64,000 nt of DNA from Isurus oxyrinchus (taxonomy: Eukaryota), in the NCBI GenBank assembly GCA_026770705.1, contig JANJGN010000004.1:141794001-141858000 (forward strand), read 5' to 3'. Position numbers and translations under genes: made by a program. Positions within the stretch are counted from its first letter, which is position 1, and every line of letters starts with the position of its first letter. Positions 10,061 through 59,599 of the stretch are shown piece by piece. The notes beneath the pieces are model-generated. The model had not been told where the DNA came from and made no database searches. It saw nothing but the letters and a program-made list of their open reading frames with translations.

Positions 10061-10707
10061 AAAGTGTAAGAAGCTAGAGTGAGGAATTAATTGCCCATTT
10101 ATAAGCATCAATTGATGGCGGGGCTGGAAGGTTGTCCATGGGCCTTCCCACCATGGACTTAATTGGGGTGGAGGCAGGAAGGGGCCCACTCAATTAAATG
10201 CATCCCCCACCACCAAACTCATCATGGGGGAAGGCACAAGATTCTGCCCAGAATTTCCTCATAGCAGCTGGAAATCTCAGCAGTTAATGCAATTTCCAAC
10301 TTAAGCCCTAGGATCCAGTTATAGGCCCATGTTGCAAACAACAATCACTTAACTGACCAACTTTTTGAGTCATCTTATTTATAATTATCTTTATGTTACA
10401 CTATGAATATGATTTACAGCTGAAAACATTAACCTGACTAAAGAAGGAAAAGAGAATTGAAGACAGTGTGAAGAAATTATTTGATTTTTTTTCACAGTTT
10501 GGTTTTGTGGTACTTGCTGGATTGTGAATAATGGCTTTGAAAAAAAACATTTGAGAACTTGATTGCTTAGATTTTTCTGGTTACTCATTCTTTATTGGTA
10601 CTTTTTACAACTTTGGATTTATTTGCATTTAGTTGATCAAGTATTTGATGGTTAACTTTAAAAAATCAGGGCTATTCGAGGCATTCATAATTTTTTACCA
10701 ATAGACT

Positions 10708-27643: not shown

Positions 27644-29722
27644 TCACGACCTAAAGTTGTTGAATTCAATATTCAGTCTGGAAGGCTGTAAAGTGCCTAG
27701 TCGGAAGATGAGGTGCTGTTCCTCCAGTTTGCGTTGGGCTTCACTGGAACAATGCAGTAAGCCAAGGACAGACATGTGGGCAAGAGAGCAGGGTGAAGTG
27801 TTAAAATGGCAAGCAACAGGGAGGTTTGGGTCATTCTTGCGGACAGACCGCAGGTGTTCTGCATAGCGGTCGCCCAGTTTACGTTTGGTCTCTCCAATGT
27901 AGAGGAGACCACATTGGGAGCAACGAATGCAGTAGACTAAGTTGGGGGAAATGCAAGTGAAATGCTGCTTCACTTGAAAGGAGTGTTTGGGTCCTTGGAC
28001 GGTGAGGAGCGAGGAAGTGAAGGGGCAGGTATTGCATCTTTTGCGTGGGCATGGGGTGGTGCCATAGGAGGGGGTTGAGGAGTAGGGGGTGATGGAGGAG
28101 TGGACCAGGGTGTCCCGGAGGGAGCAATCCCGGGGGGGTGAAGGGAAGATGTGTTTGGTGATGGCATCACGCTGGAGTTGGCGGAAATGGCGGAGGATGA
28201 TCCTTTGAATGCGGAGGCTGGTGGGGTGATAAGTGAGGACAAGGGGGTCCCTATCATGTTTCTGGGAGGGAGGAGAAGGCGTGAGGGCGGATGCGCGGGA
28301 GATGGGCCGGACACGGTTGAGGGCCCTGTCAACGACCGTGGGTGCAAAACCTCGGTTAAGGAAGAAGGAGGATATGTCAGAGGAACTGTTTTTGAAGGTA
28401 GCATCATTGGAACAGATGCAACGCAGGCGAAGGAACTGAGAGAATGGGATGGAGTCCTTACAGGAAGCGGGGTGTGAGGAGCTGTAGTCGAGATAGCTGT
28501 GGGAGTCGGTGGGTTTGTAATGGATATTGGTGGACAGTCTATCACCAGAGATTGAGACAGAGAGGTCAAGGAAGGGAAGGGAAGTGTCAGAGATGGACCA
28601 CGTGAAAATGATGGAGGGGTGGAGATTGGAAGCAAAATTAATAAATTTTTCCAAGTCCCGACGAGAGCATGAAGCGGCACCGAAGTAATCATTGATGTAC
28701 CGGAGAAAGAGTTGTGGAAGGGGGTCGGAGTAGGACTGGAACAAGGAATGTTCCACATACCCCATAAAGAGACAGGCATAGCTGGGGCCCATGCGGGTAC
28801 CCATAGCCACACCTTTTATTTGGAGGAAGTGAGAGGAGTTGAAGGAGAAATTGTTCAGCGTGAGAACAAGTTCAGCCAGACGGAGGAGAGTAGTGGTGGA
28901 TGCGGATTGTTCGGGCCTCTGTTCGAGGAAGAAGCTAAGGGCCCTCAGACCATCCTGGTGGGGGATGGAGGTGTAGAGGGATTGGTCGTCCATGGTGAAG
29001 AGGAAGCGGTTGGAGCCAGGGAACTGGAAATTGCTGATGTGACGTAAGGTGTCAGAGGAATCACGGATGTAGGTGGGAAGGGACTGGACAAGGGGAGAGA
29101 GAAGGGAGTCAAGATAATGAGAAATGAGTTCTGTGGGGCAGGAGCAAGCTGACACGATCGGTCTACCGGGGCAGTTCTGTTTATGGATTTTGGGTAGGAG
29201 GTAGAAGCGGGCCGTCCGAGGTTGGGCGACTATCAGGTTGGAAGCTGTGGGAGGGAGATCCCCAGAGGAGATGAGGTCAGTGACAGTCCTGGAAACAATG
29301 GCTTGATGTTCAGTGGTGGGGTCATGGTCCAGGGAGAGGTAGGAGGAAGTGTCTGCGAGTTGACGCTCAGCCTCCGCGAGGTAGATGTCAGTGCGCCAGA
29401 CAACAACAGCACCACCCTTGTCAGCAGGTTTGATGACAATGTCAGGGTTGGACCTGAGAGAATGGAGTGCAGTAAGTTCAGAGAGAGACAGGTTAGAATG
29501 AGTGAGAGGAGCAGAGAAATTGAGACGACTAATGTCGTGCCGACAGTTCTCAATGAAAAGATCAAGAGAAGGTAAGAATCCAGAGGGAGGGGTCCAGGTG
29601 GAGGGAGAATATTGGAGATGGGTAAAAGGATCCGTTGAACTGGGAGAGGACTCCTGCCCAAAGAAGTGAGCCTGAAGACGAAGACGGCGGAAGAAGAGTT
29701 CAGCGTCATGCCGAGCCCGAAA
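27644..29722 (-). pseudogene. Penelope-like reverse transcriptase / GIY-YIG endonuclease (692-codon open frame, disabled)
   Basis: By my reading the frame is open 189 codons upstream of the listed 503-aa ORF: KPADKGGAVVV, PKIHK..PGRPIV, MDDQSLYTSI, GVAMGTRMGP, RYIND (YIDD expected), CPRKRCNTC, LVYCIRCSQCGLLYIGETKR; frameshift near 29722 separates the LSKGLSF segment. Confidence 0.88.
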
Positions 29723-32700
29723 CTAAGTCCTTTGCTGAGCACTGAACATTCAGCATCGGAGAGGGGAAGGTCAGGGGGTATAGTGAACACACGGCTGGGG
29801 TTGGGATTGGAAGATGGGGTGGGGACGGAGGGACAGGCCGGGGTGGAGGGGCCTAGATGTGTGTTGGTGTCGATGAGTTGTTGGAGCTTGCGTTCCTTAG
29901 CACTTGAGAGAAAGAGAAAAAGTTTCTTGTTGAGGCGTTGGATGAGCCGGAGGATAAAATGAAACTGGGGGCACGTGTCAGCTGCCCACTTAGATTAGGC
30001 ATGCAGCAGGATTTGCTGCCAAGGCCATGTCAAGGGTATCTTATGAATGGAAAGTGGGTAAGGAACAGCTTAGCAGGCTAAAACTTTTCTTGTGGGGCCC
30101 CTAGGAGCAGACTGAAGTTCTACCCGTTGTACTACTTATTTATATACTAATGAGCTTACCCTGAGAATTTCAACGGGGTCAGCGGAGCATGACATGGTTG
30201 GTCACGAGCATCACCCCTCAGTAATTCTGACATCTACCTGGACCTCAAAGATATTTGGGGCTATAACCTCCACTCTCATCTTCACCACTGCCTCTTTTAA
30301 AAGCACAAACCATTTCACTGAGGATATCATTGTCTCAGGTAAATTCATTGTCTGATTTCCCAAATCTGCCATCAGGAATCCATTGTTTTGCTGTCCTTGG
30401 GTAATTAATTATTTTAATTCTGCAGGTGGACCTCATTGGCCACAAAGAATGAATATTTACAAGGGATCTTTAGTGTCGGCCTTGCTTTTCAAAATTACTC
30501 ATAAGTGAATGGCCCAGCATTTTATTATCACTGGCAAATGTTTGATAGCCCTGTGGTAACTTTTTGATAATCTATTACTGAGGGAAAGGAATTTGAGGTT
30601 TTCATATCCAGTGATAGCTGGCAATAAATAAATGTTCTTCATGCACCACTCCTGTCTAGATTTCGAGCTGAATCCAGTTTAGTGACTCACAAAATTGTCA
30701 TGTTTTTAAAAGGTTCATAACAATATTGATATGCTATTCAGAATAGGTACTAAAACAACTGCAGAAGAAATAAATCAGGTATCATGAAACTTATGATAGC
30801 AAGAAAGTGACTAGGTTTGAAGACTGAAATAATTGAAATAAGCCAAAACAGTTGACAATTAAAAGCTTGTACCCTCAGAGTTGTGAAAAAAATGTAACAA
30901 TTTATGTTTTAAATTGAATCGGCTTGTAATTTCTCTCTTGTCTGTTGTTTTGTGTTTTAAGTTCTTCTGATGCATCAAATTATTTTGTGATATTCTGACA
31001 TATTTTCATGGATTTTGGCACCATGAGGAGTTGCTCCAGAATAAAGTGATAATGCAGTATCAATGTCGTGTTCTGGATGATCTCTAGGTATTAGCACTTT
31101 AAAAGTAATCTGGCAGTGTACTAAACTTAAAATCCTATTTGTGTCTTAGGGCCAATCAGATAAAACCAACAGTGTTAAATTGTCTATATCTATGGTTTTC
31201 AATTTCTTAATCTGATATTATAGAAAATTTGCCCATGTTTACACCTGTCATTTCCAAATGCTAAACTCCCAAGATCATTGTCAATTATTGATTGACAATA
31301 TACTCTGCGGGGTGAAGGCAGCAAGGGGGCATGGGCACCTTGCTATGAACAAACAAGAAGAGAAAACAAATAATTGTTTATTTTAGTCCATTGATGTTTC
31401 TACTGGCAACCGATTCGGAGTAAGTTGCCTGGCCACTCTTTCTAGAGGAGATTGCTGCATCGTACAGGGTAAGCTTAGTAAGCAATTTACAAGGTAGGCC
31501 ACACAACAAAAATATAACTTTGTTGAAATAATCTGCAATAATATGAACATAATTGAAAGTCCGAGCCAAGATTAAAGAATAGAGTGTAGATCAGAGGGTT
31601 ATATCCGAGAGAATATTAACTCAACTGAGATCTAGTTTGCTGCTTCGAGTGGAAGCTGATGATTCTCCTGCTTGAATATTTTATTCCTTCAAGTGATGCA
31701 GTATACTCGTAAGTGGCATATACCTGTCAACCATTAAACATTTTCCCTTCAACAATTTTTCAGAGGTGAGCAAGAGAAAGGTTCCACAAGTTCAAGAGGG
31801 CCATGAGATACAAGCTTCCCTGTCCAAGAATTCCAAATACAGCAGTGCTATCACAGTGTGTTTACAATGTAATTTCACTTTACAAGGTTTTGCAATATCC
31901 TTCTTAAGTTTTCTTTTAAATTTATAATGATGAAATAGTATAGTTCTGAAATATTTAATTTTGTTATTTCATATTATTTTGATGAATTAACACAAGAATT
32001 ATAATCTTAACTGAACACAATGGGGAAAAATTCATTCACGTAGCACCACTACTCACAGAGCCACATGGATTTACATTGGAGTAGACAATGTTATGGGCCA
32101 CCACCTTTTCCGTGTTCTCCATTAAATTTCTCCCCCAATACTATGTGGTTTCTTACAATTAAACACAATTGGTTCTTGTGGTATGTTCTAATGGGGGTAC
32201 ACTAGCATAATGGTTATGTAACTGGACCAGTAAACCAGTAACTTGAATTATTGATCCAGAGACATGGTTCAAAAACCATTGTGGAGAATTTAAATTCAGT
32301 TAAGTTTTTAAAAATTGTATAGTAGGCTAGTAGCAGCAATGGTAGCCATGAAACTACTGGATTATCGTAAAAAAAAACACCTGGTTCACTCATGCCCTTT
32401 ACGGAAGGAAATCCGCCATCATCATCTCTTTTTGTCACTCGAGACCCACATCAGTATGCTTGACACTTAACTGCCCTGTGAATGGCCCAGAAAGCCACAA
32501 AGTTGCATCAAACTGCTACAGAAAGGTCAACTAAGAATAAAACCAGGTGGGCCACATGGCATCAACCTAAGCACCAGATACAACAAAGCCCAACCTAGCC
32601 AACATTTCAAAGGCCCCCTCATGAACATCTGGGGACATGTGCAAAAATTGAGTGAGAGAGCTGTCGCACAGACTAGTCAAACAATAGCCTGATATAGTCA

Positions 32701-34249
32701 TACTCACCAAATCATACATTCACCCATGGCTCCAGACTCCTCCATTGCCATCCCGTTACCAGAGATGGCAGCACATTGGTTTACAGTTAGGAGGTAATGG
32801 CCCTGGGTGGTTCAACATTGACTTCATAAATTCTCATGACATCTTATCAAATATGGCTAAGGAAAGCCCCTGTACTGTGACTGTAAACCAATGTGTTGCC
32901 ACCTCGGGTAATGGGATGGCAATGGAGGAGCCTGAAGCCATGGATGAAAGGTATGATTTGGTGAATATGACTATATCAGGCTATTATTTGATTAGTCTGT
33001 GTGACAGCTCTCTCAATTTTTGCACAAGCCCCCAGGGGGCCTTTGAAATGTTGGCTGGGTTGGGCTTTGTTATATCTGGTGCTTAGGTTGATGCCATGTG
33101 ATCCATCTGGTTTTATTCTTAGTTGGCTGATTACCACTTATCATCCTCCTTCAGCTGATGAATCAGTGCTCCGCCATGTTGACCACCACTTGGAAGGGCA
33201 CAGAATGTACTCTGGATGTAGTACTTCAATGTCAGCAGCATCATTCCTGACCGAGCTGGCCAAGTATTGAGGATGTAGCTGCCAGATTGGTTTGCGGCAG
33301 GTGGTGAGAGAAGCAACATGAGGGAAAAGCTGACTTGACGTCATCCTCACCAATCTACCTCTCACGGATGCATCTGTCCATGACATTATTGGTAGAACTA
33401 CCACACAGTGATTGTGGAGCTGAGGCCCTACCTTCACACTGAGGTCACCCTCCATAATGTTGTGTGACACTACCGCCATGCTAAATGGGATAGATTCAGA
33501 ACAGATCTAGCAGCTCAAAGGTAGGCATCCAGGCACTGTGGGCCATCAGCAGCAGCAGAATTGTGTTCAACCACTATCTGCAGCTTTACAAAAATGTACA
33601 TGTCTCTCTCTATCATTACCCTAAAGCTGGGGGTCTAAGCCTGGTTTGATGAGGAGCGTGGGAGAGCATCCAGGAGCAGCACCAGATATACCTGAAAATT
33701 CGATGCCAATTTGATGAAGGTACAACACAGGACCACATGCATGCTAAACAGTGAGTGCAGCATTTAATATACAGGGTTAAGCAATCCCACAACCAAAACA
33801 TCAAATCAAAGCTCTGCATTCCTGCCACATCAAGTGGAGAAGCATGGTGCACAATTAAACAACTAACCAGAAGAGGAAGCTCAATAAAAAATCTCTATCC
33901 TCAATGATAACAGGGCCCAGCATGTGAGTGCAAGAGACAAGGCTGAGGCATTGGCAATAACCTGAGCTGGAACTGCCAAGTGGATGATCCATCTCAGCCT
34001 CCTCCTGAGATTCCTGCCATCACAGAAGCCAGTCATCAACCAATTTGATTCACTACACGTGATATCAAGAATTAGCTGAGCACCCTGGATACAGCAAACT
34101 TGATGGGCTCTGAAAACATCCCAGCTAAAGTACTGAAGACTTGAGCTCTGGAACTAGCTCACTTCTAACCAAGCCTACAAAACTGGCATCTAGCCGATAA
34201 TATGGAAAATTGCATAGTTTTGTCCTGTCTGCAAGAGCGGGATAAATCC

Positions 34250-36637
34250 TAAAGGACATAGCTGCTAAATAGCTGCCCTAAAGGACATCGCTGCTAGGCT
34301 GGGCCTACAGCAGGTGGACAGGGAACCAACAAGAGGGAAAAACATGCTTGACCTCATCCTCACAAGCCTGCCTGCCACAGATGCATCCATCTATGACAGT
34401 ATCAGTAGGAGTGAATTCCGCACAGTCATTGTGGAGACAAAGTCCCGCCTTCGCATTGAAGATACCTTCCATTGTGTTGTGTGGCACTACCACCATGCTA
34501 AATGGGTTAGATTTTGAACAGATCTAGCAACTCAAGACTGGGCATCCATGAGGCACTGTGCGCCATCAGCAGCAGCAGAGCTGTACTCAAACACAATTAG
34601 TAACCTCAGGATCCAGCATATGCCCCATTCTACCATTACCATTTCGCCAGGGGATCAACCCTTTTTCAATGATGAGTCCAGGAGGGCATGCCAGGAGTAG
34701 CACCAGGCATACCTAAAAATAAGGTGTCAACCTGGTGAAGCTATAACATAGGACTACTTGTGTGCCAAGCAGAATAAGCAGCAAGTGATAGACAGAGCTA
34801 AGCAATCCCACAACCAACGGATCAGATCTAAGCTCTGCAGTCCTGCCACACCCAGTCGTGAATAGTGGTGGATAATTAAGCACCTTGCTGGAGGACGAGG
34901 CTCCACAAATATCCCCATCCTCACTGATGGGGGGAGCCCAGCGCACCAGTATAAAAGATAAAGCTGAAGCAGTTGCTACAATCTTCTGCCAGAAGTGCTA
35001 AGTCAATGATCCATCTTGGCCTCCTCCGGAGGTCCCCTGATGCCAGTCTTCAGCCAATTCAATTCACTCCAACAGCTGAAGTCACTGGATACTGCAAAGG
35101 CTATAGGCCCCGAAAATATTCCAAAAATAGTACAGAAGACATGTGCTCCATAACTTACCATGCCCCTAGCCAAGCTGTTCCAGTACAGCTACAACACTGG
35201 CATCTACCCGGCTATGTGTAAAATTGCCCAGGTATGTCATATACATAAAAAGCAAGCCAACTCCAACCTGGCCAATCACTGCCCCATCAGTCTACTCTCG
35301 ATTATCAGTAAACTAATAGAATGGGTCATCAACAGTGCTACCAAGTGGCACTTGCTTAGCAATAACATGCTCATTGACTCCCAGTTTGGGTTCCACCAGG
35401 GCCACTCAGCTCCTGACTTCATTACAGCCTTAGTTCAAACATGAACAAAAGAGCTGAACTTCTGAGGTGAAGTGAGAATGACTGCCCTTGACATCAGAGC
35501 CGCATTTGACCAAGTGTGACATCCAGGAGCCGTAGCAAAACTGGAGCCAATGAGAATCAGGGGGAAAACTGTCCACTGGTTGGAGTTATACCTAGCACAA
35601 AGGAAGATGGTTGTGGTTGTTGGAGGTCAGTCACCTCAGCTCCACGGCATCACTGCAGGAGGGTAGCGTCCTAAGCCCAACCATCTTCAGCTGCTTCATC
35701 AATGACCTTCCTTCCATCATAAGGTCAGAATTGGGGATGTTCGCTGATGATTGCACAATGTTCAGCACCATTCACAACTCCTCAGATACTGAAGCAGTCC
35801 ATGTCCAAATGCAGTAAGACCTGGACAATATCCAGGCTTGGGCTGATAAGTGGCAAATAACATTCACGCTACACAAGTGTCAGGCAATGACCATTTCCAA
35901 CAAGAGAGAATCTAAGCATCGCCCCTTGACATTTAATGGCAGGCATTACCATCACTGAATCCCACACTATCAACATTCTGGGCATTATCATTGACCAGAA
36001 ACTGAACTGGATTAGCCATATAAATACTGTGGCTACAAGACCAGGTCAGAGGGTAGGAATCCTGTGATGAGTAACACACTTCCTGACTCCCCAAAGCCTA
36101 TCCACCATCTACAAGGCACAATTCAGAACTGTGATAGAATACTCCCCACTTCCCTGGATGAGCACAGTTCCAACAACACTCAAGAAGCTTGACACCATCC
36201 AGGAAAAAGAAGCTCACGTGATTGGCACCTCATCCAGAAACATTCACTCCCTCCACCACCGATGTACAATAGCAGCCGTGTGTACCATTTAAAGATGCAC
36301 TGCAGGAATTCACCGAGGCTCCTTAGACAGCACCTTCCAAACTCACAAACACTGCCATCTTGAAGAACAAGGGCAGCAGATAGATGGGAACACTGCCATC
36401 ACCAAGAAGTTCCCCTCCAAGCCACTCACCATTCTGACTTGGAAATGTATTGTCGTTCCTTCACTGTCGCTGTGTCTCCCTCCTTAACGGCATTGTGGGT
36501 GTACCTACAGCACACGGACTGCAGCGATTCAAGAAGGCAGCTCACCACCACCTTCTCAAGGGCAACTAGGGATGGGCAACAAATGCTGTCCCAGCCAGCG
36601 AAGCCCATATCCCATGAATGAGTAAAAATAAATAACT
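34250..36637 (+). mobile_element. Younger 5'-truncated copy (B) of the same LINE family inserted into copy A
   Basis: REPTRGKNMLDLILT, KIAQVCHIHKK, FGFHQGHS and FINDLPS...MFADDCT motifs; complete tail; AATCC repeated at both junctions. Confidence 0.88.
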
Positions 36638-37465
36638 AATCCAATCCAGTTAATTACCACCCCATCAGTCCACTTTCAATTATCAGTGAAGTGATGGAAG
36701 GGGTCATCAACAGTGCAATCAAAAGGCGCTTACTTACTAATAACCTGCTCAACTATCCAGAGCTTGGATTCTGCCATGACCACTCAGCTCCAGACCTCAT
36801 TACAGTCTTAGTCAAAACAGCATTAAAGGGCTGAATTTAAGAGGTGAAGTGAGTATGATTGTCCTTGACATCAAGGTAGCATTTGACAAAGTGTGACATT
36901 AAGGAACCCTAGCGAAATTGAAGTCATGGGAATCAAGAGAAACTGTCCATTCCTGAACCTTACCTAACACAAAGTAAGATGGTTGTGGTTGAAGGCCAAT
37001 CATCTCGACACCAGAACATGTTGTAGGAGTTCTTCCAAGTAGTGTCCTAGGTCCAACCATCTTCAACTGCTTCATCAATGATCTTTCCATCATAAAGTCA
37101 GAAGTGGAGATTTTTGCTGATGGTTGCAGAGTGTTCAGTACCATTCATGACTCTCCACATACGGAAGCAGTCTGGGCCCCCATGCAACAAGACCTGGACA
37201 ACGTTCAAGCTTGGACTGATAAGTAGCAAGTGACTTTTGCACCACACAAGTTCTAGGCAATGAACATATCCAATAAGAGAGAATCTAATCATCTCATCTT
37301 GACATTCAATGGTATTACCATTACTGAATCCCCCACTATCACATCCTTGGGGGGACCAGAAATTTTACTGGACCAGCCATATAAATATTGTGGCTACAAG
37401 AGCAGATCAGAAGTTGAAAATACTGCAGGAAGTGATTCATCTCCTAAATCTCTAAAGCCTGTCCA

Positions 37466-37614
37466 TAAGATCATAAGACATAGGAGCAGAAATTAGGCCA
37501 TTCGGCCCATCGAGTCTGCTCTGCCATTCAATCATGGCTGATAAGTTTCTCAACCCCATTTTCCTGTCTTCTCCCCGTAACCTTTGATCCCCTTACCAAT
37601 CAAGAACCTATCTA
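37466..37614 (-). mobile_element. Short CR1 3'-end insertion
   Basis: CATAAGA tail repeats; body nearly identical to 20090-20193; TSD CCTGTCCA at 37458-37465 and 37615-37622. Confidence 0.85.
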
Positions 37615-39073
37615 CCTGTCCACTGTCTATAAGGCACAAGTTAAGATTGTGATGGAATACGCTCCACTTACTTTGATGAATGCAGCTCCAACAACACTCA
37701 AGAAACTCGACACCATCCAGCACAAAGCAGCCTGCTTCATTTACAGCCCTAACCACCACCTCCCACCACCAGCACATTGTGGTTGCAGAAACTCAACAAA
37801 GCTTCTTACAGCACCTCCCAAACCACAACCTCTATTGCCTAGATAGACAAGAATAGCAGGTACATCGAAACACCAACACTTACTATTCCCATCCAAGTCA
37901 TGCACCATCTTAATTTGGTACTATATCCCCGCCCATTCATCATAACTGGGTCAAAATCCTGGCACTCCCTACCTAAAAGCACTGTGAGTGTACCTTAGCC
38001 ACATGGACAGCAGCTCATCACCGCCTTCTCAAGGACAATTAATGACGTGCAGTAAATGTTGACTTACATCCCATGAACGAATACAAAAAATCCCTCTCTA
38101 TAGAATATATACAAGTCATTCTATCATAATGAACAGTTAGTTTTAGCACTTGAGATGAGTGACCCTTGTCTCGTAGATCAACAAAGGCCATTATTAATCT
38201 GGTGCTGAGACTTCAGTTTGTTTACCAATACGTTTTGGAAAGAATGATTGAACAGGCCTGATCTCCCTTAATCTCTGAGTTGAGTCATTTGCTTGACACT
38301 TAACCAGATGATATCCTCAGAAAAATCTAGTGACTGTAATTTCTTTATTACATAAAACGATGCACTTGGAAATGAATAATAAAGACAGGTTCAGTTTGAC
38401 TTGCACAGTGAGATGTGTTATGATAGACTGAACCATGCTTACCAGTTCAAACAGGGGACTGGAAAGTCCAATGTGTCAGGGAATGGAGTTGACAGGGTGT
38501 CGCCAGAAAAGACACATGGCCTGGGATTCATAATTGCCCACCATGTCAAAAACAGAAGTAGGTGTGCTTTGAAAATAATACTCCCGGATTGTGTGTTAGT
38601 GTTCTGACACCTCCAGGACATGCTGGAATTTTCAAAGCGAGGACAGAGTACAGGGAAGTTAGGAATCCACTCACCTCCAATTGACGGCCTTATAAGCTCC
38701 TTGAAGAGCCTGTGAATAGGCCTGGGAGGGCCAGAAAGCGATTTTTAATTTGTAAACTGTCAAACCTGAACAGTCTTGGTGCACTTTAGTGCACAGCTAT
38801 TGGGTTCAATGTGGGGAAAATTTAAGTGATTCTTTTTGCAATGAGAAATTTTTGGAACTAGGGAATTTTGCAGCGGATCAGCACAGCACTTTCCATTTTG
38901 CTGTTTCGCCACTTTTGTGCTTGGGGAGGCTGCTGGTCCTGTGATGTGCTTCTTCCTCTCTTCTGCAAGGCCTCATTTTGGCTGCTGTCTGCCTTTGCTG
39001 CTTGTGCTCTGCTGGCATTCCCATTAATTGGGTGCCAAGCTCACCTTTGACCCAGTTAGGGCACTTACATTTG

Positions 39074-39499
39074 GGGGATGATTTTACCCTCGTCAGTTGC
39101 ACATGGTGGGCGGGCCAGAGGACGGTTGCGAAACCGATCGTCACCTGCAATTGGGCCCCAACCACGATTTCATGCTGGCTGGTCAATTAACAGTCAGCTA
39201 GCATGACCGGCGCGCTCAGAGCCTCAGCATTGCCGGGGCGGGAGGAATGCGAGCTCTGAAGTGTGCGCATGCACAGGGACGCACTCAGTGAAAGCTCCCT
39301 GAAAACACAGAGCTCTTCAGGGAGCTGAAGATTTTTAACATTAAAAGGAAACATTTCAAAACTAAGGAAAACTTGTTTCCTCGTGTGACTCTGTGTGAGT
39401 GCGTGATGACGTTGGGACACTCGCCCGATGTCATTGTGCACTAATTTACTCCCGTTCAGGTCAGGCATGCGCCCGCCCGACGAGGGAAAAATTCTGCCC
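39074..39499 (-). mobile_element. PIF/Harbinger-type MITE, internally deleted
   Basis: GGGGATGATTTT / AAAATTCTGCCC; TSD TTG. Confidence 0.72.
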
Positions 39500-40419: not shown

Positions 40420-42460
40420 CAAACATAAGAACATAAGAAAAGGAGCAATAATAGGCCATTTAGACCTTTAAGTCTTCTTGCCATTTAATAAAATCATGGC
40501 TGAATTTCAATCTCAATTCCACTTTTCCACTCGATCTCCATTTCCTTTGATTCCCTTACAGCCCAAATGTCCATCAATCTCTGCCTTGAATATACACAAT
40601 GACTGAGCAACCACAGCTCTTTGGGGAAGAGAATTTCAAAGATTTACAATGCCTTGAGCGAATAAATTTTTCCTCATCTCAGTTCTAAGTGGTTCCCTCT
40701 TTCTTGTAGCTAAATGCCCACAAGTTCTAGACTTTCCAGCCAGGAGAAACAGCCTGCCAGCAGCTACCCTGTCAAGCCCTCTCAGAATCTTATATGTTTC
40801 AATGAGATTACCTTTCATTCTTCTAAAATCCAGAGAGCAGGGGTCCATTTTACATGATTCCAGATCCACAGCAATGTGGTTGACTCTTAACTGCCCTCTG
40901 AAATGGCCAAGCAAGCTGCTGAGTTCAAGTGCAATTAGGGATGGGCAGCAAATGCTGGCTTTAATCCACATCCCACATGAAGGAATAAAAAAGTTGCAGT
41001 AAGACTTCTTATACTCCAACCCTGTTGCAGTAAAAGCCAAAAGACATTTATGCCTTCATAATTGTTTGCTGTGCCTGCATGTTAACTTCATTGTTCCATG
41101 TACAAGAGCACACAAATCCCTCTGAACATCGGCATGTAATAGGTTACCTCCATTTAAAATACTCTGTATTTCAACGGAGAAGTGCAGCTGAAGAAGAGTG
41201 AAGTGCAGATCAGGTGAAATGCCTTCCAAGCATTTAGCCATCACCCGTCATGCGGTGATAACACTCTCACCTGGCCATGGCTGAAGATCATAACTGACGA
41301 AAACATTCCCAGCTTGTTAGTTCACCTAAGGAAGTCTCTCCCACTGTACATTTGCCTTCTCCAGCTTGCTGGGTTTGAGATACAGCATGCAATTGCTCTG
41401 CTGTTGGGATATAGGAAATACATGAAGGAAGTCCCTCTATGGTCTCTATGTTTTAAATGCCTTCAGTTGGCTTCCCATTTCAGCTGTGGAGGGTTCTCAA
41501 TTTCATCCAACAACTTGTCCCAGGAAAGACAGAAGGAAACAAGAATTTAATGTGTTGGAAAGTGGCCTAGTAACATTTTCTGCAATTTCCCAGCACCACC
41601 CCCAAACCCACCTTCACTGGCTTGGGAAAATTCTCCCCATTGTGTCCTGTTCATAGTTTACTTTTCCACCTACCTTTGAATTGTCAGCAAATTTGGATGC
41701 ATTCCACTTGGTCCTTTCATCTAAGTCATTAATGCAGAATATAAATAACTGAGGTCCTGAAACTGATCCTTGCTGTAGGCCACTGCCAATATTCTGCTAA
41801 CTTGAAAATGACTTTTATTCCTATTCTGTTTCCTGTCCTTTAGCCAAACCTGTATCCATAGTATTATTTTATCTCCAAACACATGAGCCCTTACCTTGTG
41901 CAAAACCTTTTGTTTAGCACTTTATTGAACGCCTTTTGCATCCAAGTATACTACATCCAATGATTTACCTTTCTCTACTCTGCTATTTACATCCTCAAAA
42001 CTCTTAATAGATTTGTCAAACAGGATTTCTCTCTCACAAACCATGTTGGTCGTGCCCAATCCTATTATGATTTTCTAAGTGCCATGTTACAACTTTCTTA
42101 ATAATGGTCTCCACCATTTTCCTGATGACTGATGCTAGGTTAACTGGCCTTGTGTTCTGTCTCCCAATTTTCTAGAATAGTAGAATTACATTTGCTAACT
42201 TCTAATCCACTGGGACCATTCCAAAATCTTGGAAATTTTGGAAGAATACAAGCAGTTCATGCACTATCTCTGCAGCCACCTCTTCTAGAGCCCTGAGGTG
42301 TGAAGTATTGGGTCCAGGGACATTGTCAGCTTTTAATCCCATTAGCTGCTTTTCTCTTACTAATATTAATTACCATAAGTTCCTCACCCTGATGATATCT
42401 ATGGTTTCCCATTATTTCTGGTACATTTTTTGTGTCTTTTACCGTGAACACAGACACAAA
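40420..42460 (-). mobile_element. Old CR1 LINE, fragmented by SINE and MITE insertions
   Basis: AACATAAGAACATAAG tail at about 40422; GNLIETYKILRGLDRV and KFADNSK-like remnants. Confidence 0.75.
40850..40995 (+). mobile_element. 5'-truncated SINE related to the tRNA-headed LINE
   Basis: LINE 5' leader ...GAAATGGCCAAGCAAGCTGCTGAGTT joined directly to the LINE tail CAAGTGCAATTAGGGATGGGC. Confidence 0.7.
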
Positions 42461-43790: not shown

Positions 43791-44697
43791 TTATTTATTT
43801 TAATTAATTAATATAATAATTTAATTAATTATATTTTATGTATATGATCAGCATAGCTTTTACTTTTTGTTAACCAATTACTTGATCCAATTTAAGTTGT
43901 AGGGAAACTAATTTAAATGCTTGCCTATAACACAAATACAATGTTACAGAGGTGAGTTGATGTAAAATATTAACTTTCAATTTCATCCGCTAGACTCACA
44001 TATGGAATTTTTAAAAAAAGGCAGTTTCATCTGTTAAAATAAAGACACTGACCTAAGATGGCTGCCACAGTTCATCTGACATTTGGGACTGAAAGTTGGC
44101 CAAGCTTCTGAAGTGGATTACAATGAACATATAGACTACCTACTTATGGGATGGTGTACCAGCCCTTGTCAGGACTTATCCCAAAACAACAAAGACAATA
44201 AGGCCTCAGAATTTCTGTCTCCAGGATGATCAGGTAACAAAGGGGAACTCACAAAACTGACTACACACAAGTGAAGTGCTAAAAAACACTATCTGCCTCT
44301 ATTGTATGGCAATGGTTTTGACCGTGGGAGTCAAAGTATTTTATTGCAAAACCCTGCTGGCTTTGAGGCAGTCCAGAGAAGGGACATCTGAAGGCAGCAA
44401 AAAGTTGTTTGCCTCTCTCTCTCACTCTTTCAACTGAACTGGGCCCTGCATGCATATATTATACAGTGGATAGCAGACAGAGAAATTCTAAAGATGACTT
44501 CAGATTCCAAAGCATCATTTCCTGGGAAAAAAAAAACAAGGGCTGTCACTTTAAGAACTGCTTCAGCCATGAACTCATAAACAATGAAATCTGTATATCT
44601 TTGCCTTCTAATGTTAAATCTTAATTTGGCCAAAAGTTAACCTCCTCTACTTTGTAACTTGCATTTTTGCATGTGTGTGGATGAGTGTGTACATTTT

Positions 44698-47600
44698 TAA
44701 TTCATTCACGGGATGTGGGCTTCACTGGTGGGGCCAGCATTTATTGCCCATTCCTAGTTGTCGTTGAGAAGGTGGTGGTGAGCTGCCTTCTTAAACCAGT
44801 GCAGTCCCTATGTGGTGTTGGTACAGCCACAGAGCTGTCAGGAAGGGATTGTCAAGGGCAGTCACTCTCACCTCCAGGATTTTGACTCAACGATGAGTGA
44901 AGGAAAGTGAAGGAACGGTGATATAGTTCAAAGTCAGGTTGGTGAATGACTTGGAGGGGAACAACTAGGTGGTGGTGTTCCCATCTATCTGCTGCCCTTA
45001 TTCTTCTAGATAGTAGTGGTTGTGAGTTTGGAAGGTGCTGTCTACGGAGCCTTGGTGAATTCCTGCAGTGCATCTTGCAGATGGTACACACTATTGCTAC
45101 TGTGCGTCGGTGGTTGGGGGAGTGAATGTTTGTGGATGTGGTGCCAATCAAATGGGCTGCTTTGTCTTGGACAGTGTCAAGCTTCTTGAATGCTGTGGGA
45201 GCTGCACTCATCCACAGGAGTGGCGGGGGTTTCTATCACATTCCTAACTTGTGTTTTGTAGATGGTGGTGAGGCTTTGGGAAGTCAGGAGGTGAGTTAAT
45301 TGTTGCAGGAATCCTAGCCTCTGACCTGCTCTTGTAACCACGGTATTTATATGGCTAGTCCATTTCAGTTTCTGGTCAATGATAACCCCCAGGATGTTGA
45401 TGGTGGTGGATTCAGTGATGGTAATGCCATTGAACTACAAGGGACAATGGTTGGATTCTCTGTGTTGGAGATAACTATTGCCGGACACTTGTGTGTCACG
45501 AATGTTACTTGCCACTTGTCATCCAAGCCTGGATATTGTCCAAGTCTTGTTGCATTTGGACATGGACTGCTTCAGTATCTGAGGAGTCGTGAATATGTGG
45601 AACATTGTGCAATCATCTGCGAATATCCCCACTTCTGACCTTATGATGGAAGGAAGGTCATTGATGAAGCAGCTGAAGATGGTTGGGCCGAGGACACTAC
45701 CCTGAGGAACTCCTGCAGTGATGTCCTGGAGCTGAGATGACTGATATCCAACAACCACAGGCAGCTTCCTTTGTGCTAGTTATGACTCTGATTTCCATTG
45801 ACTCCAGTTTTGCTAGGGCTTCTTGATGACACACTCTGTCAAATGCTACCTTGGTGTCAAGGGCAGTCACTCTCACCTAACCTCGGGCGTTCAGCTCTTT
45901 TGTCCATGTTTGAACCAAGGCTGTAATGAAGTCAGAAGCTGAGTGGCCCTGGCGGAACCCAAACTGGGTGCCAGTGAGCAGGTTATCACTAAGCAAGTGC
46001 TAGCACTGTTGATGACTCCTTCCATTACTCTACTGATGATCGAGAGCAGACTGATGGAGCAGTAATTGGCTGGGTTGGATTTTTCATGCTTTTTGTGTAC
46101 CAGACATACCTGGAAAACTTTCCACATGGCCAGGTAGATGCTACTATTAAAGCTGTACTCGAACAGCTTGGCTAGGGGTATGGCAATTCTGGAGCACAAG
46201 TCTTCAGTCCTATTGCCGGAATATTGTCAGGGCCCATTACCCTTTGCAGTATCCAGTGCCTTCAGCTGTTTCTTGATATCATGTGGAGTGAATTGAATTG
46301 GCTGAAGACTGGAACTTGTGATGCTGGGGACATCCAGAGGAAGCCGAGATGGATCATCCACTCGGCACTTCTGACTGAAGATTGTAACAAATGCTTCAAC
46401 CTTATCTTTTGCACTGATGTGCTGGGCTCCTCCATCATTGAGGATGGGGATATTTGTGGAGCCTCCTCCCCCTCCAGTGAGTTGTTTAATTGTCCACCAA
46501 CATTCACGACTGGATGTGGCAGGACTGCAGAGCTTAGATCTGATCCGTTGGTTGTGGGATCGCTTAGCCCTGTCTATCACTTGCTGCTTATGCTGTTTGG
46601 CATGCAAGTAGCCCTGCTTTATAGCTTCACCAGGTTGACACTTCATCTTTAGGTATGCTTGGCACTTCTCCTGGTATGCCCTTCTACACTCTCCATTAAA
46701 CCAGTGTTGATCCCTTGGCTTCATGGTAATAGTAGAGTGGGGATATGCGGGGCTACGAGGTTGCAGATTGTGTGCGAGTACAATTCTGCTGCTGCTGATG
46801 GCCCATAGTGCCTCATAGATGCCCAGTCTTGAGTTGCTAGATCTGTTTGAAACCTATCCCATTTAGCGCAATCGTAGTGCATACAACATGATGGGGGATA
46901 TACTCAATGTGAACACAGGACTTCGCCTCCACTATGACTGTGCGGTGATTATTCCTACCAACACTGTCATGGCCAGATGCATCTATGGCAGGTAGGTTGG
47001 TGAGGATGAGGTCAAGTATGTTTTTCCCCCTTGTTGGTTCTTTCACCGCCTGCCACAGACCCAGTCTAGCAGCTATGTCCTTTAGGATTCGACCAGCTCA
47101 GTCAGTAGTGATGCTACTGAGCCACTCTTGGTGATGGACATTGAAGTCCTCCACCCAGAGTATATTCTACGCCCTTGCCACATTCAGTGCTTCCTCCAAG
47201 TGGCGTTCAACATGGAGGAATACTGATTCATCATCTAAGGGAGGGTGGTATGTGATAATCAGCAGGAGGTTTCCTTGGCCATGTTTGACCTGATGCCATG
47301 AGACTTAATGGGGTCTGGAGTCAATATTGAAGACTCTCTCCTGACCGTATATCAGTTTGCCTGTCCTCCTGGTGGAAAAGGACACTTCAGGGGTGATTCA
47401 TGAATCGGGAGTGCACTCTTTCACGCATGCATGCGAAAGAGCGCAGAAATGGAAAAGGACATACCCAGGGATGGTGATGCTGGTGCCTGGGATATTATCT
47501 ATAAGGTATGATTTCGTGAGGATGACTATGTCAGACTTTTGCTTGACTAGCCTGTGAGAAAGCTCTCCCGATTTTGGCACTAGCTCCCAAATGTTAGTAA

Positions 47601-48629
47601 GGAGAACTTTGCAGGGTCCACAAGGCTGAGATTGCCATTGTTGTTTACGGTACCTCTGTTGATGCCGGGAGTTCCATCTGGTTTCATTCATTTTTTGTGA
47701 CTTTGTTGAGGTTTGTTACAACTGAGTGGCTTGCTAGGCCATTTCAGGGGGCATTTAAGAATCAACCACATTTGCTGTGGGTCTGGAGTCACATGTAAGC
47801 CAGACCAGGTAAGGACGACAGATTTCCTTCCCTGAAGGACATTAGTGAACCAGATGGCTTTTAATAACAATCGACAATTCTTCCACGGTCATCATTATTC
47901 TATTAATTCCAGAGGGAGAATTTTCGGCTTGGAGAATGGGGGTGGGGCCCACTCGCTGAGCTGTAAAATAATGCGGGGTGACGTCAGGCATGCAGTGGCG
48001 CGTCATTTAGATTTTCAGTTCGGTGGGCGAGCACCGGAGTCGGCTGTGCGCCCACCGAACTGTCAAAGGCCTGTTAAGGCCATTAATTAACTAATTAACC
48101 CTATTGAGAATGCTACCGATTCAACCATAAGGTTGGCGGGCAGGCGAAGAGCCCAGGCGGCCTTCACATTTTTCATGGACCCTCATCCGCGGGTGGGAGG
48201 GGCTTTCATGAATGTTTTTGAAATCTTGGAAACATTTTTAATAAAATTAATACACATGCCCCAGCTCATGCGACAGTTTCACATGAGGGGACATGGTCTA
48301 AAGATTTTTTTCTCCTTTATTAAACTTTAGAAACTTTAAACTAATCTCTCTGAGGCACTTCTGTGCCTCAGGGAGGTTTCTGCGCTTTTTCACATGCATG
48401 CATGAAAGACCGCACTCCCGATTCAGGGATCACCTCTCCCACCCGCACAGGGAGTGCTCAGCGCTGGGCAGGCTGGGGGCACCAATCGGGACCACTCCCG
48501 CCCTCACCCACCCTGGCACAACCAACCCCCCCCAACCCCCCTCTCCCACCGACAGGGGGAAAATTCTACCCCAGCATTTTATTGAAGTCAAATTCCACCA
48601 TCTGCCGTGGCAGGATTCGAACCAGGGTC
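44698..48629 (-). mobile_element. Near full-length copy (C) of the tRNA-headed APE-RT LINE; 5' end runs into the gap
   Basis: B-box GGTTCGAATCC at 48623-48613; leader; CKVLLTNIWELVPK...DIVILTKSYL APE start; EPTRGKNILDLILTN; GVPQGSVLGP...IFADDCT; tail at 44698-44790. Confidence 0.9.
47913..48571 (+). mobile_element. PIF/Harbinger-type MITE inserted in the LINE C leader
   Basis: AGGGAGAATTTT / AAAATTCTACCC; TSD CAG; removing it restores the leader seen at 58590-58620. Confidence 0.8.
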
Positions 48630-48981
48630 NNNNNNNNNNNNNNNNNNNNNNNNNNNNNNNNNNNNNNNNNNNNNNNNNNNNNNNNNNNNNNNNNNNNNNN
48701 NNNNNNNNNNNNNNNNNNNNNNNNNNNNNNNNNNNNNNNNNNNNNNNNNNNNNNNNNNNNNNNNNNNNNNNNNNNNNNNNNNNNNNNNNNNNNNNNNNNN
48801 NNNNNNNNNNNNNNNNNNNNNNNNNNNNNNNNNNNNNNNNNNNNNNNNNNNNNNNNNNNNNNNNNNNNNNNNNNNNNNNNNNNNNNNNNNNNNNNNNNNN
48901 NNNNNNNNNNNNNNNNNNNNNNNNNNNNNNNNNNNNNNNNNNNNNNNNNNNNNNNNNNNNNNNNNNNNNNNNNNNNNNNNN
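48630..48981. other. Assembly gap (352 N)
   Basis: Run of N. Confidence 1.
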
Positions 48982-50123: not shown

Positions 50124-50823
50124 GGCTGCAATATTCTGGTCAGCAGGCGGGGGCGGGCCCCATCCGCCGACACATAAAATGACACGTGGTGACGTTGAGC
50201 GTGTGTCCCGACGTCACTGCGTATTATTTCGATCTTCATTTTGGCGGGCGCGCACCGGAATTGGCTGCGCGCCTGCCGAACTGTCAAAGGCCTGTTGAGG
50301 CCATTAATAATCTAACTGAGCTAATTGTCAGGGCTGTCTGTCCAACCTTAAGGTTGGCGGGCAGGCGAAGAGCCCAGGCGGCCTTCGCATTTTTCATAGA
50401 ACCTCATCCACGGACGGGTTGAGGTTTCATGCAGGGTTTATAAATTCAATAAAATGTTTCAACAAAATTTATAAACACGTCCCAGCTCATGTGACAATGT
50501 CACATGAGAGGACATGTCTGAATAATTTTATTTATTCTTTCTCCCAATATTTGAGAATGAAATTAATCTCCCTGTCCGTGCTCAGGGAGATTTCTGCGCT
50601 CTTTCGCGCACTTGTGCAAAGGAGCGCAGGCCCAGACTCTCTCTCCTCCCCCCGCCTGCACAGATAGCGTGGAGCACTTCCGGGTGCGCATCACACTGGG
50701 CAGGCCTTAATTGGCCCACCCATGTAAAATGGCGGTCTGCAACCAATCGCCAGTGGCAATCGGCGGCACCCCCGCCCGCACCTGCTCCCGCCCAGCCTGC
50801 CCAATGGGAAAAAAATTCTCCCC
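50124..50823 (+). mobile_element. PIF/Harbinger-type MITE
   Basis: Degenerate left TIR, right TIR AAAATTCTCCCC, TSD TAT; collinear with 47913-48571. Confidence 0.78.
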
Positions 50824-51398: not shown

Positions 51399-52480
51399 GG
51401 GTGGAATCATCCCAGATTTGCATAAAATGCAGTAGTGGGTGAGAAAAAAGCTGTATTACCCGCCAGCAGCAATGGCGTGTTTCTGCACCATATCGTCCCA
51501 TTTCTGCTTCATTAATTATGCAGCCACACGCCATCTTGCTGGTGGCAGCCTCTGATTAGCCCGCCATGCAGTTCCTCACACTTCCTCATGCAGGGTGTCA
51601 TGTTTAAACTGCAGCCACGCACACACTTCTCAATGCTTGCAGCCCAGGACTGCTCTAGTGAAGACATGGCCCCAAAAGCCATGAAGAGTGCAGACCCCCC
51701 ACAACCCCTACCCAATTCAGTGACACAACCCTGGGATACCTTCTGGGCACCGTGAATGCCCGTCCCGATGTCCTCTACTCTGGCTCAGGCCACAGGGGGC
51801 ACATCAGTCTCACCACTCCGGCTTGAGAGGCGGTGGCAGAGGTGGTCAGTGCCAATGCTGCACACAAGAGATCGGCCATCCAATGCACACCCCTTCCTGT
51901 CAACAGCTCTCGCCCTCAGCCTCTTCCTTTGCCTGAGATCACTTCTCCCCCTTCCCCAAGCAAGCCCTAGCCCTGCAGCCTTTGCAAAGCTCCCATCTTA
52001 CAGCTGGTCTGGTAGGTAGAGACCTGCCCGTGAGCTCCTCTATAAGTGATGTGGTGCTGCCTGTGATGTCTGGTGCTGATGGCCATGAGTGTTGCCTGAA
52101 GCAAGGTAGGTAAATAAACCTCAAAGTCCCAAGTAAAGTGTAGCTCACCAGGTGCACATTGCTTATGTACAGTTGTGAAACATGTCAGCTTACAATCACA
52201 CTGATGTGCCCAGTTGATCCAGCGTGGAGGATGATTCTGGTGAACAGGTCTTATAATGAAATGCTAAAGTATTGAAATTAGTTTCTAGACATGTGAGAGC
52301 GCATGTTAGTAACATAAGTAATTTTAGCCCTTTAATGCATTTATGCATATCCATTTGTGAAATCCATTCATTACCTTTTAGGCCTGTCTTCTGTGACACA
52401 TATTAAATAAAGTCTTGGTGTCCTTACCACTTCATGGGCCTCCATTTTTGCTGAACTGAGTGAGTTGTGGACATTTTGCC
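51399..52480 (+). mobile_element. Non-autonomous Harbinger-type element with a Myb/SANT exon remnant
   Basis: Left end GGGTGGAATCATCCCAGATTTG; from ATG 51666 QFSDTTLGYLL...A*EAVAEVVSANAAHKRSAIQC; collinear with 58040-59599; right end uncertain. Confidence 0.62.
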
Positions 52481-55689: not shown

Positions 55690-56280
55690 GGGCAGAAGCT
55701 CACGTCCCATTGGCGGGCGCACGCCTGAGCCAATAGTGCGTAAAATCGCGCAAGATAATGTCAGCCGATATTTCGCTTGGCGGGAGCATACAAAAGCCGG
55801 AAGTGCTTCTGCCGACAATTAAGAGGTCAATTAAGCCCATTAACAGTGCAATTGTCTGCGAGTTCTCGTGGTCCGTCCAGCCTTATGGTTGGTGGACAGG
55901 CGATTCGGCCTTTATATTTTTCATGAAGCCTCATCCAAGGGCAGGATGAAATCTCCGTTAGGAAATAAAATTAAAAAAATCATCTGGGAACAACACTTTT
56001 ATGAGATATGCTTTCAGGTGCATGATTGTGATACATGGGCATTTTTTTTTGCAGCTTTTTAATGCTTCGTTTCATTATTTGCAGGTCTGCAGCTCCCCAA
56101 AGCAGCTCTCTGCCTTCAGAGAGCTCTCTCGACGTGCTCACCCACGTCAGCTGTGACATCATCACCAGCCCTCTTCCTGAACTGACCAGCCCAGTGCGAA
56201 ATCGCGGTCGGGGGCCCGTTTCCTGGCTGCTCCCGGGCCCGCCAATATCGCGCATGCCTGAGGAGAGAAAAATTCAGGCC
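55690..56280 (+). mobile_element. Diverged MITE of the same family
   Basis: GGGCAGAAGCTC / AAAATTCAGGCC; shared CCTCATCC..GGATGA hairpin; TSD not clean. Confidence 0.6.
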
Positions 56281-58039: not shown

Positions 58040-59599
58040 GGGCAGAATCGTCCCAGATTTGCACTAAGTGCAGTAACCGTCGGGTAAAACAGCTGCAACG
58101 GTGGATTTTCATCCCGTATCATCCCAAACCCACAGCATTACTTATGCATTCCCGGGAAACATGCCATTTTAATGGCAGGCAGGGTCTCCTTCACTCACCA
58201 CGCCATCACCTCGCCACTTCATCACACTGGACGCCATATTTAAAGTCAAGCTGTGCGCACACATCTCAGTTCTTCCATCCCACGACTACTGCAGGGAAGA
58301 TGTCCATGAAAGGCAAAAAGACTGGAACCCTCAGGTTTAGTGACACATCACTGGAATACCATTTGGAGGCCGTGGAGGCCTGCCATGATGTCCCCTATGC
58401 CTGCTCTGGCCACAGGATGGGCAGCAGTGTGACCAACCAGGCTTGGGAGGTGGTGGCAGTGGTGATCAGTGCCAGTGCTGTACAGAAGAGGAGGTGGTGG
58501 CATAGTGGTATTGTCACTAGACTAGTATTCCAGAGGCCCAGGGTAATTCTCTGGGGACCCAGGTTCAAATCCCATTGTGACAGATGACGAAATTTGAATC
58601 CAATAAAAATCTGGAATAAAGTCTGATGGTGACCATGAAACCATTGCTGATTGTTACAAAATCCCATCTGGTTCACTAATACTCTTTGGTCTGGCCTACA
58701 TGTGACTCCAGGCCCACAGCAAATGTGGTTGACTCTTAAAATGCTCCCTGAACAAGGGTAATTAGGGGTGGGCAATGAAAGCCAGTGACACCCACATCCC
58801 ACAGAAAAATAAAAGAGGGTTGGCCATCCAAGATAGAGGATGAATGATCTCATCTGTGCAGCCAGGGTATGGCAACCATCTTATCATTCTAAACTCACAC
58901 ACTCAAGCCCATCATACTCACTGTCAGCTCAAGGGACATCACCACCCATTCTCTCACATTTCTATTTGGCCTCATCTCCTCTGGGGCTTGCTTCCTCAGC
59001 CCCCACCATTTTGAGGCAACTTGCACAGATCAACATGTGCCCCCACACACACCCTGGGTTACCCTCCTTCCCCAGTACAGACCTTGGTCTGCAGTCTGTT
59101 TTCTCCCCCTTCACCAAGCAAGCCCTAGACATGCAACCATTGAAAATCAACCCACATATGGCTGACCTGGTAGATAGAGACCTGCCCATGAACCCCATTA
59201 AAAGTGATGTGGTGCTGGCTGTGAAGCCTAGTGCTTGTGACTGTGAGCGCTGACTGAAGCAATGTAGGCAAACAAACCTTGAAGTCCTGAGTGAAGTGCA
59301 GCCCGCCAGGTGCACATTGCTTATGTGCTGTTGTGAAACATGTCAGTGTGTTTCCCACTGACTTTGGCAGATGATCCAGCTGGGGGGGTATCGATTCCGG
59401 TGGGCAGGCCTAATAATGATGCGCTGATGTATTACAATGAGGTTCCTGATGTCCGATGGCAGGAAACGCAGCCTGCCATTGGTGGGCTGAGTGGATGATC
59501 GTGAACTGGGTTCAGGGTGTTGTGAAACCAATCGTGCCATATTTTCTGCTCATGCCACCATACATGCCTGACGCCAGCAAGCATGGAAAATCCCAGCCA
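58040..59599 (+). mobile_element. Non-autonomous Harbinger-type element with Myb/SANT exon 1
   Basis: Ends GGGCAGAATCGTCC / GGAAAATCCCAGCC; LRFSDTSLEYHLEAV...QAWEVVAVVISASAVQKR, then a SINE, then RMNDLICAAR and a GT donor. Confidence 0.68.
58492..58812 (+). mobile_element. Full-length tRNA-derived SINE sharing head, body and tail with the APE-RT LINE
   Basis: A-box TGGCATAGTGG 58498-58508; B-box GGTTCAAATCC 58562-58572; LINE tail; TSD AAGAGG at 58486-58491 and 58813-58818. Confidence 0.85.

Follow-up and report, generated by a model that had tools for sequence, protein, structure and literature searches.

We found that the SINEs in a 64,000-nt stretch of Isurus oxyrinchus DNA (hereafter the window) are probably short internally deleted derivatives (SIDEs) of an elasmobranch Zenon LINE, and we give this reading a probability of about 0.6. 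The full-length SINE is colinear with the 5′ leader and the 3′ tail of the LINE and has no part of its own. Zenon deletion derivatives and tRNA-headed bipartite SINEs are already known; what would be new is a SINE that is also a SIDE, derived from a LINE with a SINE head.

The LINE is made of a tRNA-like head, a body of ~250 nt, one APE-RT ORF, and a stem-loop tail, and its ATG lies ~350 nt from the 5′ end. Copy A (44694–47913, minus strand) has its leader body at 47913–47688, the ATG at 47687, a broken APE-RT ORF with its stop at 44756–44754, and a tail reaching 44694. A fragment of its head with a perfect B box lies at 48572–48629 (minus strand), and the rest of the head falls in an N gap (48630–48981). 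Copy B (32193–34249, plus strand), with a complete tRNA-like head, is the 5′ part of an older full-length Zenon of the dogfish-type subfamily, and copy D (36638–38090, plus strand) is its 3′ continuation with the tail. Thus, B and D are one older full-length element, interrupted by copy C (34250–36637, plus strand), a 5′-truncated A-type Zenon inserted with the TSD AATCC. The tRNA-like head is present in both window copies that reach that far (A and B). These two copies are 65–74% alike (65.5–70% in head and leader), and the leader-to-ORF junction is common to both. In addition, RVT_1 was found in the single broken ORF of copy A, and the whole LINE ORF is colinear with a 983-aa APE+RT protein at ~35%; close protein matches came from Rhincodon, Heterodontus, and Heptranchias, in line with a shark-type host genome. 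The leader contains 6–9 upstream ATGs, and thus translation would need something besides plain scanning.

Several other repeats touch these copies. A MITE-like repeat with short terminal inverted repeats (47914–48571) is inserted in the leader of copy A. It belongs to a non-coding family of ~650 nt with related sequences near 1884–2322, 13102–13720, 39156–39338, 50176–50803, and 55828–56128, and a ~75-nt piece of it lies inside the copy A ORF at 47377–47452, between two similar flanks. Within 32528–33125, the 5′ ORF region of copy B is duplicated in inverted orientation. Copy D carries an insertion (37466–37615) that matches 20090–20195 at 93% over 106 nt; with such likeness to a second locus, this insertion must be much younger than the Zenon copies.

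Judged from its sequence, the LINE is an elasmobranch Zenon, a member of the CR1 group with a single APE-RT ORF. It has no ORF1, and the tail alignment shows A-rich ends, that is, a poly-A tail. Furthermore, in the first 400 nt, compared by eye, all seven published elasmobranch Zenon consensuses (CarCar, HypSab, RhiTyp, ScyCan, and SquAca-1/2/3; 2886–3314 nt long) begin with the head and body of the window LINE and agree with its ORF start; the same inspection, over the same length, showed no such head in the hagfish (2) and coelacanth (1) Zenon consensuses. Since the head occurs in seven of seven shark and ray consensuses, it characterizes the family, dates back at least to the shark–ray split, and is no accident of one locus. 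In a quick tree, from which a named Zenon reference was absent, copies A and C fell in a group with proteins of amphioxus and moth (SH-aLRT 99) that did not include the CR1-like RT of the window. The latter represents a second LINE family (20482–21329, minus strand; 22979–23821, plus strand), which was far from the Zenon copies in the tree and was used as a control.

Elasmobranch Zenon LINEs were reported by Stuart et al. 2026 (PMC13343379), and in the available portion of that paper they resemble the window LINE in having ~3.3 kb, no ORF1, APE and RT, and a poly-A end. The main text of PMC13343379, as far as that portion extends, contains no "tRNA", "polymerase III", or "promoter", and its sole "SINE" stands in a reference title; the head and the short derivatives are undescribed there. 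A tRNA-headed Zenon or these SINEs were likewise undescribed in the literature searched, which included the accessible portions of PMC7245038, PMC3747384, PMC5753468, PMC4824008, PMC11481361, and PMC5804259 and had Repbase, Dfam, subscription journals, and bioRxiv supplements outside its scope. The SINE may already have a database name. As a separate observation, the gene models P0002, P0003, P0004, and P0049 (for example, shark aldo-keto reductase and storkhead-box) contain pieces of the Zenon ORF, which is either an annotation artefact or exonisation.

Outside the sharks and rays, the head was sought among metagenomic relatives. None of the 23 relatives with at least 300 nt upstream had an A+B box pair there, including L001 and L003, the nearest ORF-intact metagenomic loci in the quick tree, and no tRNA was found in any of the 35 metagenomic loci scanned. 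In blastn against 80 metagenomic loci, no match of the leader, head, or tail went below E 0.027. Exact leader patterns had no match in metagenome, viral, or prokaryote contigs, and relatives of the LINE ORF were not found in viral contigs. Neither an RT fragment nor the conceptually translated leader had a match in protein searches, and the matches of one further motif search were within chance.

The full-length SINE (SINE58) occupies 58491–58812 on the plus strand, with a tRNA-like head, a body, a LINE tail, and an A-rich end. The sequence-only reading had described it as bounded by target site duplications (TSDs), and this holds: AAGAG(G) stands on the plus strand at 58486–58490/91 and again at 58813–58817/18, and a paralogue of the host repeat keeps an empty site, a single AAGAG without insert, at 51866–51870 (plus strand). 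The host repeat extends over 58215–59445 and the empty paralogue over 51579–52285; the translation near 58330–58490 of the host repeat presumably resembles the Myb/SANT-like protein of Harbinger transposons.

In the head of SINE58, a Pol III type-2 promoter-like pair lies at 58498–58571 on the plus strand (A box from 58498, B box at 58562–58571). It is the only A+B box pair with at most one mismatch on both strands of the 64-kb window, and we regard it as a putative Pol III promoter. D-, anticodon-, and long extra-arm stems are visible by eye (fold z 0.77), and the head may resemble a class II tRNA (Leu); ARAGORN and Rfam gave no tRNA hit in it. The folds of head, body, and tail were mostly no better than those of shuffled sequences, with only the head of copy B at z −2.95. 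The leader part of SINE58 aligned with that of copy A in two stretches, one of 66 nt (92%, E 2e-21) and one of 73 nt (77%, E 2e-9), and ~27 nt of body are missing near 58686. The tail (58753–58812, plus strand) includes the last three LINE-ORF codons and the stop, the 3′ UTR, and a GGGATGGGC/GCCCACATCCC-type stem, and it aligned with a LINE tail along 58 nt (74%, E 1e-5). These matches confirm the earlier description of SINE58 as the LINE head and leader joined directly to the last ~65 nt of the LINE, although that description did not mention the ~27 nt missing from the body. The SINE58 family has 5′ A and B boxes, a LINE-derived tail, a TSD, and several loci, as a tRNA-derived SINE (SINE2) does, and it is also made of the 5′ and 3′ ends of its partner LINE, as a SIDE (a bipartite non-autonomous LINE) is.

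The window contains two other short copies. The copy at 40850–40992 (plus strand) is a 5′-truncated SINE whose leader is 23 nt longer than that of SINE58, and it matched leader and tail with E 2e-18 and 1.5e-7. The copy at 4762–4959 (minus strand) is also 5′-truncated and is the most decayed of the three (67–72% to LINE copy A and to SINE58); its leader and tail matches had E 3e-12 and 2.6e-6. Both had been called SINEs from the letters alone. The leader and tail matches agree with that name, but both copies are truncated at the 5′ end and lack a tRNA head, and a clear TSD was not seen at either.

Three different junctions had been claimed for these elements, and the quoted strings are indeed present: CCCTGAA/CAAGGG at 58752/58753 in SINE58 (type 1), GCTGAGTT/CAAGTG at 40925/40926 (type 2), and TGCACTG/AGGGCAAC near 4838 on the minus strand (type 3). 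However, all three share one tail start (within ~2 nt), and the differences are confined to the leader side, so that the junctions form a nested series. From the common tail start it is 10 nt to the ORF stop and ~12 nt to the terminal stem. The SINE leader is cut 33 or 56 nt before the LINE ATG and is followed by the last ~65 nt of the LINE; type 1 equals type 2 minus 23 nt. Both types are colinear with the LINE, with no SINE-specific insert. Microhomology is limited to 1 nt at type 2 and is absent at type 1. Among the 13 tail copies listed from the window, LINE sequence stands upstream in 10 and the leader in 3. Given the strong decay of its copy, type 3 may be a type 1 that has undergone small deletions.

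To estimate the recurrence of the junctions, the contigs of four runs from two organisms (X1, X8, X20, and X23) were compared with 44600–47990 at 80% likeness; contig counts and depth in this comparison are not copy numbers. Type 2 appeared as a loose end at 47720 in 31 X23 contigs, and the consensus there is the tail. For type 1, a joint 44756–47743, at the exact point of SINE58, was found in 2, 2, and 1 contigs of X1, X8, and X20, of which some in X1 or X8 may be SINE58 itself or its orthologue; the letters of the X20 contig differ from SINE58. A joint 44760–47772 occurred in 13 contigs over the four runs, and the one listed reads as type 1. Among the between-letter rows listed (all from X20), 7 of 12 ran from leader to tail: three are type 1 with letters unlike SINE58, two are type 2 or near it, one has further deletions, and one shows a new junction. 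Type 3 was not seen in other contigs among the joints listed. The leader had a higher contig depth than the adjacent ORF start, but this depth is no copy number and carries no weight here; the two "RNA?" runs may be DNA. No contigs bridging leader and ORF were counted under a 31-letter rule.

The new, fourth junction (joint 44792–47749) was seen in one X20 contig; relative to type 2, it is longer by a few bases on the leader side and by ~26 bases on the tail side. It retains LINE-only bases on both sides. TCAA microhomology is possible there, which does not fit types 1 and 2.

Junction types 1 and 2 thus exist at several loci: they recur in public contigs and are not single-copy deletions, and both behave as an amplified family with a fixed junction. 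The proposal that the junctions mark amplified subfamilies is upheld for these two types (type 1 in three runs of two organisms, type 2 in one run), but type 3 was seen at one locus.

To trace the direction of descent, subfamilies were tracked with five window sequences and the published heads. The head of SINE58 is 79% identical to that of copy A and 63% to that of copy B, the latter distance being inflated because B is more decayed; A and B are 65.5% identical to each other. At the 66 sites where A and B differ, SINE58 agrees with A at 41 and with B at 19. In addition, a segment of ~17 nt common to B and the dogfish consensuses is absent from A, SINE58, and the white-shark type; the indel pattern of SINE58 is that of A, and the B head matches the dogfish type. 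The site just before the junction has the state of A (AAA) in three of three type-1 sequences and that of B (AAC) in the type-2 copy, so that the link of type 2 to a subfamily is a single nucleotide. Overall, A is the closer match for each of the three SINEs. The leader–ORF fusion is common to A and B; the departure of the SINE58 leader from the LINE lineage must therefore postdate their split, unless copy A exchanged its leader. Type 1 would then have acquired its leader from the A-type LINE lineage after that split, and a type-1 leader that follows one LINE subfamily favours a deletion from LINE to SINE, as far as such sequence comparison can tell.

Repeated birth of SINEs by deletion, which the sequence-only reading had proposed, fares in two ways. 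Deletion is favoured for type 1, whose head tracks A, but three independent births are not shown, because one tail breakpoint is common to all three junctions. Types 1 and 2 may have arisen by separate deletions from the LINE, or the product of a single deletion may have lost a further 23 nt. Moreover, the choice once offered between deletion from a tRNA-headed LINE and capture of an ORF by a SINE is not exclusive. Non-elasmobranch relatives lack the head, so the deletions were presumably preceded by a single acquisition of it, either from a tRNA or from an older SINE. We infer that this acquisition took place on the elasmobranch stem and that at least one deletion followed it. In target-primed reverse transcription, the LINE protein recognizes the tail and can act in trans. 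If the head supplies a Pol III promoter and the tail supplies the stem-loop recognized by the RT, an internal deletion that kept both LINE ends would immediately give a working SINE, and this SINE would be copied in trans by the LINE protein through target-primed reverse transcription. The fixed tail breakpoint could reflect the minimal stem-loop needed by the RT.

Two other histories deserve consideration. The short copies might be single LINE insertions that lost their middle during or after insertion and were never amplified. The copies at 40850 and 4762, with no clear TSD, would suit such losses, as would type 3 and the fourth junction, each seen once; the 31 type-2 contigs of one run and the type-1 contigs of two organisms, with differing letters, already refute this account for types 1 and 2, and we consider it very improbable. 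In a more serious alternative, the founder was an ancient tRNA SINE that had a Zenon tail, and a Zenon ORF obtained head and body from it through template switching. The SINE junction classes would then derive from one another through nested deletions in the body, and the subfamily characters in common with LINE A would stem from later recombination in the shared leader. Points against deletion from the LINE are that independent deletions need not have one tail start, that type 1 has no microhomology, and that the joint counts are small; a single tail breakpoint and nested leader ends are what a SINE ancestor would leave. The lack of the head in hagfish and coelacanth Zenons, of the A+B pair in the 23 metagenomic relatives, and of a tRNA in the 35 loci also suits a SINE ancestor. 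Furthermore, the accessible parts of two studies describe module exchange between SINEs as common (PMC5499810, PMC7245038), and those of a third report that CR1-Zenon drives several SINE superfamilies in bivalves (PMC11481361). Nevertheless, the SINE58 head groups with LINE copy A and not outside A and B, and one X20 contig retains LINE-only bases on both sides of its junction. An outside SINE with this body was not found either: short motifs had no match in three supplements and the full-text library, a weak result from exact matching only. Thus, we regard a SINE ancestor as rather unlikely, and the SIDE reading is preferred.

Pol III RNA cannot contain oligo-T runs. In the majority sequence of the window copies, the sense strand has no T4, against 12 A4, 9 C4, and 2 G4. 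Its 679 in-frame codons contain 3 TTT against 10.6 expected under synonymous permutation (0 of 2000 permutations), with A, C, and G runs as expected; the T4 count (0 against 1.6 expected, 308 of 2000) is not significantly low. For five raw copies pooled, there were 36 T3 against 51.9 expected (0 of 1000, z −3.4) and 9 T4 against 11.9 (195 of 1000). Taken singly, copy C and a copy at 6817 have a significant T3 deficit, and copies A, B, and D do not (200, 577, and 171 of 1000, respectively); no copy has a significant T4 deficit against dinucleotide shuffles. The controls were 61 related non-shark ORFs from the 80 metagenomic loci, selected for a stop-free RT frame of 450 codons or more. T4 occurs in all 61, and each has at least 7.5 T3 per kb, against 1.5 in the shark majority sequence, which is not like-for-like with single intact control ORFs, and 5.3 in the raw copies. 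Two of the 61 have T4 as rare as the raw shark copies. The T content of the shark ORF is 0.22 against a control median near 0.30, and most controls are richer in T. In the first 400 nt, T4 was found by eye in none of the seven elasmobranch Zenon consensuses and in all three of the other vertebrate ones. Two of the controls, the unrelated metagenomic LINE ORFs L011 and L019, likewise have a TTT deficit under synonymous permutation (z −3.8 and −3.4), which equals or exceeds that of the pooled raw shark copies; L011 has no A+B pair upstream.

The T-run poverty of the sense strand hints at Pol III transcription, and we put transcription of the LINE itself by Pol III at roughly even odds. With less weight, we suggest that the LINE would be made by Pol III and purged of oligo-T terminators. 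The fullest version, an autonomous Pol III Zenon with a captured tRNA head, a T-purged strand of 3.3 kb, an uncapped RNA translated via a structured leader, and a SINE born by internal deletion from each subfamily, is tentative, and we would put it below an even chance; SINE and LINE would then be two lengths of one element. Alternatively, the head may be a passenger on a LINE made by Pol II, from the leader or by host read-through, and the T runs may be scarce because of composition or avoidance of splice or decay signals. This possibility, which leaves the SINE anatomy unaffected and is a separate matter from whether a SINE came first, falls only a little short of even. Uncapped Pol III RNA is a poor mRNA, and the upstream ATGs of the leader, the non-significant T4 deficit, the low T content, and the two controls at similar z would all suit a passenger head. 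Against it, both LINE subfamilies have retained the A and B boxes, which can also be recognized by eye in all seven consensuses, from sharks to ray; the T3 deficit persists with amino acids and codon usage fixed; and the CR1-like and Penelope-like ORFs of the window have no significant T-run deficit.

Among known systems, a close one is Persaeus, a lepidopteran Zenon SIDE with at least four origins (PMC6740152). According to the accessible text of that source, Persaeus resembles the shark SINE in joining the Zenon 5′ leader to the 3′ end and in having 263–386 nt, poly-A, variable breakpoints, and several independent origins; however, it has neither tRNA homology nor a Pol III promoter, and it includes the ORF start and a variable middle (PMC6740152). 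The shark SINE, in contrast, carries A and B boxes in its head and lacks a middle of its own. Also close are Bov-tA, WALLSI2, CoeSINE4/5, and SINE2_Gav, which, in the portion of PMC5786205 available, also consist of a tRNA head, a LINE 5′ part, and a LINE 3′ part. In those SINEs it was a non-autonomous RTE or Vingi derivative that received the head, and the LINE from which that derivative came is headless (PMC5786205, same portion), whereas in the shark case the parent LINE carries the head. The general statement that SINEs usually share only the tail with their LINE is fair, but bipartite LINE derivatives are known, as the available parts of PMC5786205 and PMC6740152 indicate.

The SINE here is ~320–400 nt long with a Zenon tail. 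Its body presumably differs in sequence from the Deu domain. The DeuSINEs SacSINE1 and LmeSINE1 are similar to it in representing a shark tRNA SINE that has a body and a LINE-derived tail (accessible parts of PMC5499810 and PMC2746220). SacSINE1, however, has 463 bp and a tail of the L2-2_CM type and shares only the tail with its LINE, as described in the part of PMC5499810 at hand; the shark SINE has neither that length nor an L2 tail. As a candidate identity, a SacSINE1 or Deu-SINE with an L2 partner was ruled out by the tail, the length, and the Zenon consensuses.

For human L1 and Alu, Pol III SINE RNAs retrotranspose without ORF1p, according to the available text of PMC2666806. This offers a reason why an ORF1-less LINE could use a Pol III promoter (PMC2666806, same text); the parallel is limited in that Zenons lack ORF1 whether headed or not.

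A CR1-group LINE with 612–2313 long copies per genome in three species here contains every part of an abundant vertebrate SINE, from head through body to tail. ORF-intact Zenon copies number 3 in stingray and 1 in whale shark. With all three SINE parts in such a LINE, the direction and number of SINE births can be resolved by a tree. To our knowledge, the origin of SINE bodies is not known in most cases. An origin from LINE 5′ UTRs has been proposed, and in the accessible part of PMC5786205 it is documented only for RTE and Vingi. If the LINE is a Pol III transcript, the usual split between Pol II for LINEs and Pol III for SINEs would be broken, and the question would arise how an uncapped 3.3-kb RNA gets translated. 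For repeat annotation, these SINEs and the Zenon 5′ ends will mask each other.

Besides the LINEs and SINEs, the window contains a fairly intact Penelope-like element at 27644–29722 (minus strand), with a stop-free frame of 692 aa and RT and GIY-YIG matches. A second Penelope-like copy lies at 8788–10084.
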